NCBI RefSeq assembly: GCF_029240215.1
Contig: NZ_JARBTK010000005.1
Location: 19,813-83,812, forward strand
DNA length: 64,000 bases
Direction of reading: 5' to 3'
From: Chryseobacterium sp.
GTDB taxonomy: Bacteria; Bacteroidota; Bacteroidia; Flavobacteriales; Weeksellaceae
Shown here: positions 8,885-15,494 of the stretch, in pieces
Numbering within the stretch: position 1 is the stretch's first letter
Layout: each line of letters starts with the position of its first letter
Translations under genes and position numbers: made by a program
Notes under the pieces: model-generated
Told to the model about the DNA's origin: nothing
Databases searched by the model: none
Seen by the model: only the letters and a program-made list of their open reading frames with translations

Positions 8885-8921
8885 TGCGTAAATAGAATGC
8901 GTACTCGTGGTTTTATCTTTG
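8885..8921 (+). promoter_or_regulatory. Shared regulator box + -7 element (exonuclease genes)
   Basis: TGCGTA-AATAGAA-TGCGTA then TATCTTTG. Confidence 0.65.
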
Positions 8922-9030
8922 CAGTGCTTTAGCAGCAATTCTTCTTTAGGGTATTTCTTCCCGCTTTTTTTCCAATTTAGTAAAACCGAATGCAGATGAA
9001 TAAAAAATATGTAGAATAAAAAAAATTAAA

Positions 9031-9576
9031 ATGAAAACAACAAATCAAATATTAATTATCGACTTAGAAGCCACTTGTTGGGAAAACGACAGAATTCCCG
9101 CTGGTCAAAAAGTCGATATTATAGAGATAGGAATTTGCGAATTAAACAGAACAACAAAAGCAATTTCCAAGAAACAAAGCATTTATGTCATTCCGGAAAG
9201 GTCTAAAATCAATAAATTTTGTACAGATTTGACAGGAATTACTCCAAAATTGATAGAAGAAAAAGGAATTCATTTCGAAGAAGCCTGTGAGAAAATTAGG
9301 AATGAATATGATTCAACTTCGCTTACCTGGGCTGGTTTTGGAAATTTTGATAAAGAGCAAATCATGGAACAATGTGACTATCTCGGTATAGAAAATCCTT
9401 TTTCCGAAAATTATCTGAATGTGATGCATCAATTCAAAAATTATAATGGACTTCATAAAATGATGGGTTTAAAAAGAGCTCTAAAGTTCCTGAACATGGA
9501 TTTTGAAGGAAATCATCACAGCGGGGCAGACGATGCTTACAATGCTGCCAAAATTTTGAGAGAGATTTTGGAGTAA
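9031..9576 (+). CDS. DEDDh 3'-5' exonuclease, copy 1
   Basis: IIDLEATCW, IEIG, HH.GADDA. Confidence 0.9.
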   Translation: MKTTNQILIIDLEATCWENDRIPAGQKVDIIEIGICELNRTTKAISKKQSIYVIPERSKINKFCTDLTGITPKLIEEKGIHFEEACEKIRNEYDSTSLTWAGFGNFDKEQIMEQCDYLGIENPFSENYLNVMHQFKNYNGLHKMMGLKRALKFLNMDFEGNHHSGADDAYNAAKILREILE

Positions 9577-9603
9577 TTTTTTAACAATAAACAATTTAAA
9601 AAA

Positions 9604-10152
9604 GTGAAAACAACAGACAATATATTAATTATAGACCTCGAAGCAACGTGTTGGGATGACCGCCCGCCGAGAGGTCAGGAAAGCGAAATCATAGAAATCG
9701 GCGTTTGTATTATGGATGCAAAAACCGGTAAGATTTCACAAAATGAAGGAATCTTAGTGAAACCTCAATATTCAAAAGTAAGTCCGTTTTGTACGGAACT
9801 GACTTCCATTACTCAGAAAATGCTTGATGAAGATGGCATTTTGCTAGAAGATGCATTAGATATTCTGAGAGCAGAATACGATTCTGAAGACCTGACTTGG
9901 GCGAGTTATGGAAATTATGATTTGAATATGCTTCAAAATCAGGCAAGAAGATTCAATGTCGATTATCCTTTGAGTGATGATCATATTAATGTGAAAACAT
10001 TATTCGGACAAACGCATCCGACCGTCAGAAAAAGTGTCGGAATGGCAAGAGCTTTAGGCGAGTTGAATTTTAAGCTTGAAGGCACTCATCACAGAGGTGT
10101 GGATGATGCAAAGAATATTGCGAAAATTTTGTATTGGTGTTTGCAACAATAG
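9604..10152 (+). CDS. DEDDh 3'-5' exonuclease, copy 2
   Basis: IIDLEATCW, HHRGVDDA; tandem paralog. Confidence 0.9.
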   Translation: MKTTDNILIIDLEATCWDDRPPRGQESEIIEIGVCIMDAKTGKISQNEGILVKPQYSKVSPFCTELTSITQKMLDEDGILLEDALDILRAEYDSEDLTWASYGNYDLNMLQNQARRFNVDYPLSDDHINVKTLFGQTHPTVRKSVGMARALGELNFKLEGTHHRGVDDAKNIAKILYWCLQQ

Positions 10153-10181
10153 TAATGTAAAAATATAGCAATGTAGAAATG

Positions 10182-10206
10182 GCTTCCTTTTATGGGGAGC
10201 TTTTTT
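10182..10206 (+). terminator. Intrinsic terminator
   Basis: GCTTCCT/GGGGAGC stem + T run. Confidence 0.6.
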
Positions 10207-10233
10207 ATTGACATAGGAAAATGGAGCGTTAAG

Positions 10234-10354
10234 AAAATTAATTCTGTGAACGTTAAGAAAATTCTACTGTTTGAGCGCGAGACCAATATTGAATCGAAGA
10301 ACCAATGCCGAATTCGCGCGAGTTTTAGAATTTTTAGAGAACAGAATTAATTTT
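10234..10354. repeat. Nested inverted-repeat element (MITE-like)
   Basis: AAAATTAATTCTGT/ACAGAATTAATTTT, AAAATTCTA/TAGAATTTT, GCGCGA/TCGCGC. Confidence 0.6.
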
Positions 10355-10450
10355 TAGCGTAAGTTTCCAAGTCTTGTCCCGAAGCTTCGGGATTGTTTCA
10401 TTTGTTTTAAGACAAAAGAAAATTATAAAAAAAAACACATTAAAATATTC

Positions 10451-10486
10451 TACGCAAAAACATTGCGCAATAACGTCCTTACTTTG
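10451..10486 (+). promoter_or_regulatory. Shared regulator box + -7 element (ncRNA-slipin operon)
   Basis: TACGCA-AAAACAT-TGCGCA then TTACTTTG. Confidence 0.65.
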
Positions 10487-10621
10487 CATCATCAAAATAA
10501 AACAATACTAAAATTTTGAAAACAGATTTTAGTCAAAATATCAGGCAAGTCTTGTTGAGTGTTTCTGTATAGCACCATTGCAGGAGATTTTGTTGAGAAA
10601 CATTAATTTTTTCTGTTCAAC

Positions 10622-10919
10622 TTGATTTGAAGGTTTCAGGAGTTTGCCAAAAAACTTCTACCATGCGCTATGGGTCGAAGGTTCGAATCCTTCTATTTCC
10701 GTTAGGGAATATAACTCAGTTCGGTTAGAGTAATAGCTTTTTTGGATGCGAGGGTTCGACTCCCTCCCTCACTTCGGATGAGGTAGCTCAGTTGGTTAGA
10801 GCACTACACTTTTAATGTAGGTTGAAATAGACTCAAAATCTATTTTTAGTTAGAGCTTGAATATCTCGTTAAAAATATTCACCATGGAAAATTTGAGTTT
10901 TTTTCAGTTGTTGAATCAA
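10622..10919 (+). ncRNA. Yrl-like RNA with two circularly permuted tRNA modules
   Basis: T arm-closed acceptor-D arm order at 10667-10737 and 10750-10820; outer TTGATT/AATCAA stem; ends approximate. Confidence 0.65.
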
Positions 10920-13372: not shown

Positions 13373-13408
13373 TACGCAAAAACACTGCGCAATACTATTC
13401 TTACTTTG
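13373..13408 (+). promoter_or_regulatory. Shared regulator box + -7 element (Ro/TROVE gene)
   Basis: TACGCA-AAAACAC-TGCGCA then TTACTTTG. Confidence 0.65.
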
Positions 13409-13470
13409 CATAAGAAATCAGAGAGGAAGTGATAATCCTCCAAAAATGTTTAACAAAAAAAACAGTAACC

Positions 13471-14987
13471 ATGAAATTTAATTTTTTAAGAAAAGAGAAT
13501 AAAGTAGTCATGAACTACGAAGGTGCAAAAGCTTATACAATGAAACCTGCAGAAGAACTATACAGTGCTGTTGTTACAACAGGATTATCAAACGCAACCT
13601 ATGAAAAGGGAAATGACAGATTGGCGAGAATCCAGTCTCTGATTCAGAAAAACGATCCTGAATTCGTTGCAAAATTGGCGGTTTATGCAAGAAAAGATAT
13701 GTATTTGCGTTCAATTCCGTTGGTTTTGACGACCGAATTAGCGAAACAAACTTCAGGTACTGACTTGGTAAGCAGAACCGTTGACGGAGTGATTCAAAGA
13801 GCAGACGAAATCACGGAATTGTTGGCATATTATCAATTAGCCAACGAAAGAACAGAAACAAAAAAGCTGAACAAACTTTCAAAACAAATTCAAAAAGGTT
13901 TGGTAAAATCCTTCAATAAATTTGATGAATACCAATTCGCAAAATACAACAGAAAAGCTGATGTTACGTTGAAAGATGCCTTGTTCTTGGTTCACCCAAA
14001 AGCAAAAGACGAAAATCAACAAGCAATTTTCAACAAAATCGTCAATGATTCGTTGGAAACTTCATATACTTGGGAAGTTGAACTTTCGGTTTTAGGTCAA
14101 ACAAAATTTGCTAATGATGCGGAAAGAAAATCAGCTTTCAAAAACAAATGGGAAGAATTGATTTTCAGTAACAAATTGGGTTATATGGCAACGTTGAGAA
14201 ACTTGCGAAACATCATAGAAGCGAACGTTTCTTCAGACGCGATGTACAAAGTATGCAACTATTTGTCGGATGAAAAAGCAGTGAGAAATTCAAAACAATT
14301 GCCATTCAGATTTTTGGCGGCGTACAGAGAATTGAAAACGATCGATTCACCTTACTTGTCATCAATCTTAGAAGCATTGGAAGATGCGGTGATGGTGAGT
14401 GCGAAAAATATCAAAGGTTTTGGTTTCGATACTTCAGTTGTGATCGCAGCAGACGTTTCCGGTTCGATGCAACAGCCGGTTTCTCCGAAATCTAAAGTTT
14501 TGCTGTACGATATTGGTTTGTTGATGTCGATGATGTTGCAGTCACAGTGCAAAATATGATTTCAGGTATGTTTGGTGACCGTTGGAAGAGAGTTCCGATG
14601 CCTAAAAACGGGATATTGAGAAACGTTGATGCGTTCTACAAAAGAGAAGGTGAAGTTGGTTACTCCACAAATGGTTATTTGGTGATCGAAGATTTGATCA
14701 GAAAAAGAGAAAAAGTGGATAAAGTAATGTTGTTCACCGATACTCAGCTTTGGGATAGCAATGGTGGTAGAAATTCTTTTGAAAATTCTTGGAATCAATA
14801 CAAAAGTTTCAATCCAAATGCAAAATTGTATATTTTTGATTTGGCAGGTTACGGAAAACAACCGTTGGATGTCAGAAAAAATGATGTATATCTTATCGCG
14901 GGTTGGTCCGACAAAATTTTCGATGTACTGAATGCTTTGGAAGACCGAAAATCATCGGTAGCAATAATAAAAAAAGTAGTGCTGTAA
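13471..14987 (+). pseudogene. rsr: Ro60/TROVE-vWA RNA-binding protein with a -1 frameshift at the A run 14551-14554
   Basis: NYEGAKAY, YARKDMYLRS.P, MATLRNLRN, LPFRFLAAY, MIDAS-like DVSGSM; adding one A gives ...QCKNMISGMF and joins both ORFs. Confidence 0.85.
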
Positions 14988-15034
14988 AAGGCACTGCTTT
15001 TAAAAATAAAAACTAATAACCAATTTTTTTAGAA

Positions 15035-15152
15035 GCTATTTCCCGCTTGGAATTTATGCTGAGCGAAGTCGAAGCACAGCACTATATCTTTTTCTCCAAC
15101 GCTTTTTTTCCAACGCCAATTCAGAAAAAGGATGCCGTTTCAATCAGGGCTA
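15035..15152. repeat. Dispersed repeat family 2 (second copy ~39625-39727)
   Basis: GCTATTTCC..C...AATTTAT.CTGAGCGAAGTCGAAG...GGGCT shared; ends approximate. Confidence 0.6.
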
Positions 15153-15177
15153 TAAGGAGACAATGTTTAACTAACAG

Positions 15178-15265
15178 TTTGTCATTCTGAACTAAACGTA
15201 GTGAAGTGAAGAATCTCAACAAATATTTCAAGAGATTGTTTCATCATTTCATTCCTCGCAATGAC
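15178..15265. repeat. TTTGTCATT-family element, degenerate
   Basis: TTTGTCATT...GAATCTC..GAGATT...GCAATGAC. Confidence 0.6.
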
Positions 15266-15274
15266 CTAAAAAAT

Positions 15275-15346
15275 AACCGATGCCGTAAGAAAAGAAATCC
15301 TTCGACTTCCAATTGAAAAATGAGTCTTTTCGCAAATTGCTCGGTT
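15275..15346 (+). ncRNA. Y-RNA-like unit A (minimal)
   Basis: AACCGA[T]GC-CGTA ... GC-TCGGTT; ATCCTTCG box. Confidence 0.6.
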
Positions 15347-15352
15347 TTAAAT

Positions 15353-15437
15353 AACCAATGTCGTTACCATAAGAGTTCCATCGATCAAACTTATAACTTG
15401 AACAACATTCAAAACTCTTATAACCTGTTACTTGGTT
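15353..15437 (+). ncRNA. Y-RNA-like unit B (minimal)
   Basis: AACCAA[T]GT-CGTT ... AC-TTGGTT; TTCCATCG box. Confidence 0.6.
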
Positions 15438-15458
15438 TTCATTTAAAATAATTTTAAC

Positions 15459-15494
15459 TGCGTAAAAAGAATGCGCACTAACGCAATAATTTTG
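15459..15494 (+). promoter_or_regulatory. Shared regulator box + -7 element (units C-H)
   Basis: TGCGTA-AAAAGAA-TGCGCA then TAATTTTG. Confidence 0.65.

Follow-up and report, generated by a model that had tools for sequence, protein, structure and literature searches.

The closest described counterpart of the promoter element treated here is the operator of DriD, an SOS-independent DNA-damage activator of Caulobacter crescentus (PDB 8tp8, 9pfv). DriD operators (ATACGAC-N7-GTCGTAT) have AT-rich centers, and in the complex the DNA shows a bend of ~30 degrees; recognition-helix arginines read the outer, CG-rich bases, the site overlaps the position of a missing -35 element and keeps a fixed distance to the -10 element, and DriD also binds its own promoter region (PMC10853764, PMC13004042). 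Two further factors, PafBC of mycobacteria and SiwR of M. smegmatis, activate from a -26 element by 'sigma adaptation', control DNA-damage or genotoxic-stress genes, and sense single-stranded DNA (ssDNA) (PMC10693628, PMC11804915). CapW (CBASS) and BrxR (BREX) are repressors of defense operons, of the winged helix-turn-helix (wHTH)-WYL-WCX type, that act at a palindromic promoter operator and are de-repressed by ssDNA (PMC11662680, PMC9122601). In Salmonella and E. coli, the RtcR-dependent operon rsr-yrlBA-rtcBA provides for joint induction of Ro60 (Rsr), Y RNAs, and RtcB (PMC7790460, PMC4201824). Here we describe a 19-base box, TRCGYA-N7-TGCGYA, that is part of four promoters in an RNA-repair island within a 64-kb stretch of a Chryseobacterium genome (hereafter the window) and of a fifth promoter, that of rtcB, elsewhere in the same genome. 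Judging from sequence, a structural model, and analogy, we give a probability of roughly 0.7 to the reading that this box is the operator of a WYL protein encoded on another contig, C14, which would activate the five promoters in a DriD-like manner on binding a nucleic-acid ligand.

The window comprises positions 19813-83812 of contig C2 in a 3.72-Mb assembly of 14 contigs; the host belongs to the Chryseobacterium/Epilithonimonas group of the Weeksellaceae. Positions given below without a contig or locus label are those of the window. When scanned with TRCGYA-N7-TGCGYA, the window gave four matches, compared with none in 100 dinucleotide-preserving shuffles of the 64-kb sequence that served to set the chance level. 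All four lie on the plus strand, exactly where a preliminary description of this DNA had placed them. Box 1 (8885-8903, TGCGTAAATAGAATGCGTA; with the preceding base, 8884..8903, C-TGCGTA-AATAGAA-TGCGTA) belongs to the promoter of a unit of two exonuclease genes; box 2 (10451-10469, TACGCAAAAACATTGCGCA; 10450..10469, C-TACGCA-AAAACAT-TGCGCA) to that of a unit comprising noncoding RNA (ncRNA) and a slipin gene; box 3 (13373-13391, TACGCAAAAACACTGCGCA; 13372..13391, T-TACGCA-AAAACAC-TGCGCA) to that of Ro60; and box 4 (15459-15477, TGCGTAAAAAGAATGCGCA; 15458..15477, C-TGCGTA-AAAAGAA-TGCGCA) to that of a downstream array of Y-RNA-like genes. Each promoter has a plus-strand -7 element of the Bacteroidetes type, TAnnTTTG or TTnnTTTG: TATCTTTG at 8914-8921, TTACTTTG at both 10479-10486 and 13401-13408, and TAATTTTG at 15487-15494. 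The G of these elements lies 18 nucleotides (nt) past the end of box 1 and 17 nt past the ends of boxes 2, 3, and 4. The earlier claims of a 17-18-nt distance, of A-rich spacers (seen in all four boxes), and of the units downstream are thus borne out.

A TTG at a 19-nt spacer from the -7 element is the known Bacteroidetes promoter arrangement and, as a control, the TAnnTTTG sites of the host genome (n = 5540) indeed show a TTG peak at this spacing. No TTG was present at 17-21-nt spacers upstream of the -7 element in any of the four promoters, in line with the earlier statement that a normal -33 TTTG is missing. A terminator-like hairpin precedes each window box (8846-8861 upstream of box 1 and 10376-10393 upstream of box 2, for example), so each box opens a transcription unit of its own.

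The geometry was refined on a collection of 194 unique sites. In 163 of them (84%), exactly 17 nt lead from the end of the box to the G of TTTG, and these 163 sites yield the consensus C-TRCGYA-AAAnsAt-TGCRYA, followed by nine variable nt and TTACTTTGCA. Conservation extends beyond the search pattern, to a C directly 5' of the box (85% of sites), AAA at box positions 7-9 (94%), an A at box position 12 (96%), and TTAC 5' and CA 3' of TTTG. The dyad consists of the outer seven bases on each side (TRCGCAA / TTGCGYA) around an asymmetric, A-rich center, and the CG cores of the two half-sites are 13 bp apart. If the -7 element is taken to span -11 to -4, the start sites being predicted, the box would cover ~-39 to -21; with the same numbering, its A-rich center would sit at the position expected for a -33 TTTG.

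In the whole genome the pattern has six matches, and the reversed pattern, which was used as the control, has none. The fifth real site (C14:784626, TACGCAAAATTATTGCGCA) lies on another contig in front of rtcB. Here the box is followed by TTACTTTGCAT, with the G again 17 nt past the box end, ~20 nt upstream of a gene for a 460-amino-acid RtcB. A relaxed pattern returned the same five sites and nothing else, and so did a weight matrix trained solely on sites of other genomes (55, 48, 47, 45, and 15 bits, with no site in the reversed genome); the highest matrix score in the genome, 55 bits, is that of box 2. The sixth match, at C14:353017, was discarded as chance: it is inside a very large open reading frame (ORF) and has neither an A-rich spacer nor a -7 element. 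With only five real sites, every one of them ahead of an RNA-repair unit, and empty reversed controls, we conclude that the motif is not a general promoter feature. The genome scan suggested in the preliminary description therefore yielded one more real site, before rtcB, and the outcome that it had named as fatal to a regulon, frequent occurrence at unrelated promoters, was not seen with the pattern, the relaxed pattern, or the matrix.

Divergent from rtcB are a 112-amino-acid HopJ-family gene and then a 336-amino-acid wHTH-WYL-WCX gene (G000:C14:782977-783984), hereafter the C14 regulator. The intergenic region between rtcB and hopJ-WYL contains the fifth box, which is ~650 bp away from the WYL gene start. 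The preliminary description had predicted an activator, possibly of the WYL type, encoded outside the window; consistently, the window contains no WYL gene, and the C14 gene stands beside the sole other real box. Two other WYL-domain genes are present in the genome (C4:13339 and C1:441498), and among the three only the C14 gene adjoins a box. RtcR, represented by PF06956, was not found in this genome (93.8% complete), while it was found in the E. coli control; an alternative regulator of the known type is thus lacking.

The C14 protein matches the Pfam domains WYL (E 4.5e-13) and WCX (E 1.1e-8). Its AlphaFold model, built on 92 homologues with a mean predicted local distance difference test (pLDDT) score of 91, combines a winged HTH, a helical bundle, WYL, and WCX in one protein (elements H3-61/E71-81, H95-162, E167-219, and E251-H335). 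In a Foldseek search of the PDB, the top match was DriD bound to ssDNA and DNA (8tp8, E 1e-13); DriD-RNA polymerase complexes and PafBC were the further best matches, CapW and BrxR trailed at E 1e-8 to 1e-6, and all of the top 30 matches belonged to these four proteins. A profile search matched PafBC, which scored best, and DriD over the WYL-WCX part; a single-sequence PDB search with the regulator gave nothing useful. The fold search with a model of the HopJ protein yielded as its sole match VPA0580, a HopJ homologue of unknown function. A length of 520-580 amino acids is seen in many relatives of the regulator with ~50% identity, and at least two homologues (P0128 and P0131, ~577 amino acids) have a C-terminal PhyH-like 2-oxoglutarate dioxygenase domain; in Chryseobacterium, a HopJ-family gene in the regulator's operon stands in its stead. 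HopJ or the PhyH-like domain could be a partner in signal sensing.

On the reverse strand of the rtcB/hopJ intergenic region, hopJ-WYL has a conserved -7 element, TATTTTTG. A TTTG within the rtcB box lies 21 nt upstream of it and is a possible -33 element of this divergent promoter; binding at the rtcB box could therefore, on the strength of this layout, also autoregulate the regulator. In three Soonwooa loci (L059:5444, L060:5549, and L061:5341), whose rtcB promoter is far away, a second box variant, TACGCAAyTyCAATGCGCA, without an A-rich spacer, is located just upstream of hopJ-WYL, which fits a putative autoregulation.

The linkage of box and regulator is conserved. Regulator orthologues with 77-91% identity were found at 80 loci in Chryseobacterium and Epilithonimonas, and nearly all of these keep the rtcB | hopJ-WYL arrangement. 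Nearly every locus with a close promoter has, upstream of rtcB, [T/A]RCGCAAAAnnAnTGC[G/A][C/T]A, nine variable nt, and TTACTTTGCA; the box and the -7 element are fixed, and the nine nt that separate them drift freely. In a sample of 151 genomes of the order, scored with an orthologue cut-off of E <= 1e-30 and a strict box-plus-TTTG pattern, the regulator was present in 37 and the site in 23, and 22 of these 23 box-positive genomes had the regulator. Only one of the 114 regulator-negative genomes had a site, a poor one without an A-rich spacer. In other families, where the regulator is 45-62% identical, a box stands directly beside the WYL gene (G018, G027, and G029). A phylum-wide sample of 251 genomes added four distant lineages (G176, G305, G393, and G277), at least one of them from another class. 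In three of these (G176, G305, and G393), the box in front of RtcB adjoins a WYL gene (43-47% identical), and Ro60 is preceded by a second box in G176 and G393; G277 has boxes before RtcB-like and RlaP genes, with no WYL gene in the stretch examined. Single matches without an A-rich spacer in G037, G162, G323, G321, G354, G231, and G241 were treated as chance, the reversed-pattern control giving six matches in the same 251 genomes. As judged from these sequences, the gene-box linkage recurs in several well-separated lineages. The search for a syntenic WYL regulator in relatives that had been proposed earlier thus gave a positive answer across genera, families, and at least one other class.

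At some loci, the region between the box promoter and rtcB is longer. Several relatives (L008, L012, L014-L019, L024, L025, L032, and L051) have there a ~110-nt G+C-rich structured leader, a tRNA-like element with a GTTCGAATC T-arm, or a long (CTAA)n microsatellite. Where the rtcB leader is structured, the box promoter is found further upstream.

The gene content of the regulon was compared with that of 12 other sampled genomes of the genus, all of which have two to six sites each and no control match. A box precedes rtcB in all 12, Ro60 in 10, and RlaP (with a box of its own) in 8; an ORF-free stretch after Ro60, with Y-like RNAs, follows a box in most of them, sometimes behind two tandem promoters 213 nt apart. 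Less frequent targets are a small ORF plus TatD (4/12), the ncRNA-slipin unit and a fusion of an N-terminal domain with a short-chain dehydrogenase (SDR) (each in at least one of the 12), and, in a few, unknown proteins. The identified targets in the host and these 12 genomes are RNA-repair or RNA-processing genes or ncRNAs, plus the few unknowns, and no DNA-repair or cell-division target (recA, recJ, didA-like) was found among them. Box targets in other families include an RtcB-like gene, an ncRNA-SPFH unit, an exonuclease, an Rnl1-type ligase, the same SDR fusion, and SUKH and DUF2130 proteins. The SDR fusion, a protein of 454-489 amino acids with an unknown N-terminal domain and a short-chain dehydrogenase, is box-preceded in two families. 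Among relatives, boxes also stand before this fusion, TatD with the small ORF, and a protein resembling a pPIWI-associated nuclease at L113:1556-2920, L118:3-1469, L091:1611-2396, and L152:441-1325.

Taken at the level of sequence, the likeness to DriD and PafBC is close in mechanism, not in regulon. DriD and the C14 regulator have the same wHTH-3HB-WYL-WCX domain order and fold, with a sequence identity of only ~15%. Their operators share a TACG-N11-CGTA register, with half-sites of ~6-7 nt separated by 7 nt and an AT-rich center; the box has the two CG-containing half-sites at the 7-nt separation (TRCGYA-N7-TGCRYA) of a DriD-type operator, and it is placed like one, over an absent -33 element at a fixed distance from -7, relative to predicted start sites. 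The inner half-site bases differ (TACGCA here, TACGAC in DriD), the host promoters are of the Bacteroidetes -33/-7 type, unlike those of the DriD host, and the C14 regulator, unlike DriD, is co-transcribed with a HopJ-family gene. PafBC and SiwR resemble the predicted C14 system as WYL-WCX activators that, on promoters without a -35 element, bind between the usual elements and reprogram the housekeeping holoenzyme. PafBC, the second-best fold match, is however built as a heterodimer or fusion in which one HTH is degenerate, and it uses an asymmetric site centered nearer -26. The targets of DriD and PafBC are DNA-repair or cell-division genes, whereas the C14 regulon is concerned with RNA repair (RtcB, Ro60, Y RNAs, RlaP, exonucleases, slipin). 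This is the output of the RtcR system, which likewise has a dedicated regulator with a nucleic-acid-sensing domain; RtcR, however, joins a CARF domain to a sigma-54 enhancer-binding ATPase and controls one operon, while here five units at two loci have housekeeping promoters and a shared operator. CapW and BrxR have the same architecture as the C14 regulator, a weaker fold match to it, and a single adjacent operon that they repress; the promoters here lack a -33 element, and the regulon is multi-locus. In the literature searched, we found no account of an RNA-repair regulon under WYL control.

In the mechanism that we favor, a homodimeric wHTH-3HB-WYL-WCX factor would read two TRCG(Y)A half-sites via its two winged-helix domains, with the A-rich, probably bent box center lying between them, and would occupy ~-39 to -21 of a housekeeping Bacteroidetes sigma-A promoter, over the place of the -33 TTTG. 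On binding of a nucleic-acid ligand by the WYL domain, the factor would recruit or stabilize RNA polymerase at the promoters without -33, as DriD and PafBC do, and thereby switch on together the two 3'-5' exonucleases, the tRNA-like RNA and slipin, Ro60, the Y-RNA array, and rtcB (with RlaP). We infer both the binding of the box by the C14 protein and the mode of activation by analogy, because the geometry and position of the operator match those of DriD and the -33 element is missing. Activation is favored because, besides this lack, the spacing is fixed to the base pair and the fold is closer to that of the activators. As to the ligand, ssDNA has precedent, and damaged RNA is a serious alternative because the regulon is purely RNA-directed. 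More tentatively, and with the odds somewhat against it, the WYL domain would sense damaged RNA (tRNA halves, nicked tRNA, or 2',3'-cyclic phosphate ends) and not ssDNA, making the protein a sigma-A-dependent Bacteroidota counterpart of RtcR with HopJ or the PhyH-like domain as a co-sensor or ligand-processing partner.

Several points weigh against DriD-like activation by the C14 protein. The -7 element is near-consensus and extended (TTACTTTGCA), so the promoters might fire unaided, and the factor could then be a repressor like CapW or BrxR. The known WYL activators sense ssDNA and control DNA-damage genes, none of which are in this regulon. The co-occurrence counts overstate the support, since they include related genomes that are not independent of each other, and the two other WYL genes are excluded only by the lack of a box nearby. 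Of the competing explanations, the most substantial, though an unlikely one in our estimate, keeps the same regulator and operator and reverses the sign: an unliganded dimer over -39 to -21 would block RNA polymerase until released by its ligand, as with CapW and BrxR. These two repressors are significant fold matches with the same wHTH-WYL-WCX architecture, the -7 element is both strong and well conserved, operators that overlap the promoter are typical of repressors, and the overlap of the rtcB box with a possible -33 TTTG of the divergent hopJ-WYL promoter fits negative autoregulation. What tips the balance is that none of the promoters has a -33 element at the spacing typical of this genome, that 84% of sites keep one and the same distance from box to -7, to the base pair, as expected for a polymerase contact, that the activators DriD and PafBC are better fold matches by five to six orders of magnitude in E-value, and that the geometry is that of DriD promoters, which likewise have no -35 element.

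It is a good deal less probable that another factor binds the box, be it the WYL paralogue at C4:13339 or C1:441498 or an unrelated regulator, with the C14 WYL gene a mere member of the regulon. Adjacency is indeed no proof of binding, and the genome has three WYL-domain genes to choose from; yet no box is near either paralogue, the C14 gene alone adjoins one, and the box tracks C14 orthologues across families, standing next to them in G018, G027, G029, G176, G305, and G393. Least probable of all, and in our view barely tenable, is that the box is not an operator and serves instead as the upstream element of an alternative-sigma promoter or as a conserved element at the RNA level. Such a role would agree with its replacing -33 at a fixed distance from the downstream element. 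The latter is however the canonical housekeeping TAnnTTTG of Bacteroidetes, the box has dyad symmetry and two equivalent hexamers, as would suit a dimeric HTH protein, its place upstream of the expected start site means that it should not be transcribed, and it tracks a transcription-factor gene and not a sigma gene.

The units behind the four window boxes, all on the plus strand, are as follows. Box 1 is followed by two tandem genes for RNase_T / Rv2179c-like 3'-5' exonucleases (9031-9576 and 9604-10152); an exonuclease downstream of a box also occurs in another family (L140). The second transcription unit (10540..12652) consists of a ~780-nt leader with tRNA-like/YrlA-like modules (10583-10851), an SPFH/Band 7 (slipin) gene (11269-12369), a tRNA-shaped RNA, and a terminator (12628-12652). 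The same layout of box, ~750-800-nt leader, and SPFH gene is found in two relatives, L105 and L133, and outside the family in L125. A three-mismatch match to the box at 12453 was rejected as a promoter, being within a hairpin of the tRNA-shaped RNA. The Ro60/TROVE gene behind box 3 (13429..14987) is split into two frames, 13429-14559 and 14547-14987, by one base missing in an A-run at ~14551-14556, while the relatives compared have a single ORF of 505 amino acids; the frameshift may be real or a homopolymer assembly error. A box before Ro60 is also seen in the distant lineages G393 and G176. The Y-RNA-like (YrlA-like) genes behind promoter 4 (15500..16357) include three Rfam YrlA matches below the gathering score (15567-15630; 15787-15892, E 4.5e-9; and 16075-16150) and terminator-like hairpins at 16146-16163 and 16325-16357. 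Minus-strand HTH-like ORFs at 16333-17113 were rejected as WYL regulators: they overlap the Y-RNA region, are weak in Pfam, and matched nothing in NCBIfam or by tblastn. Two matches to the Flavo-1 RNA family, both under the gathering score (33 and 30 bits), lie in the slipin leader (11013-11089, plus strand) and between Ro60 and box 4 (15063-15155, minus strand).

Upstream of box 1, at 2128-4316, are 15 tRNA genes, then ATP-grasp (R2K), cREC receiver, Rnl2-type RNA ligase, and phosphoesterase genes. Pattern, mismatch, and matrix scans found no box before the tRNA array or the ATP-grasp/cREC/Rnl2/phosphoesterase operon, which places both outside the regulon; since none of its genes has a box, this part of the island is controlled differently. 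A long palindrome, GTCATTCCGTAGGAATCTC ... GAGATTCCTACGGAATGAC, occurs both upstream of the Ro60 promoter (13223-13292) and between rtcB and RlaP (L007:12108-12170) and resembles a dispersed element of the REP type or a bidirectional terminator. Where relatives have a separate box promoter for RlaP, the palindromic repeat is found here. The RlaP gene 3' of rtcB (L007:12205-17037, G000:C14) stops after 137 amino acids at an A-run, with the rest in another frame, and this interruption may be an assembly error. Further 3' are an AAA_21 ATPase, an HNH protein, and then a second RlaP paralogue of 352 amino acids.

To our knowledge, enterobacteria, with RtcR, are the only bacteria for which the inducing regulator of Ro60, Y RNAs, and RtcB is known. 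The sites described here define a compact, specific Bacteroidota regulon, with five promoters in this genome and two to six per genome in relatives, and a named candidate regulator with an operator defined to the base pair makes the question of induction directly testable. The regulon joins genes that had been linked only by neighborhood (RlaP, the slipin with its tRNA-like leader, the RNase T-like exonucleases, TatD, and the SDR fusion), which, given the shared operator, would act in one response. It would also extend activation of the DriD/PafBC kind to Bacteroidetes, whose -33/-7 promoters are unusual, and it raises the possibility of a WYL transcription factor that senses RNA damage. In this Chryseobacterium, as its sequence suggests, the whole RNA-repair set is probably under the control of a single sensor protein that switches it on.

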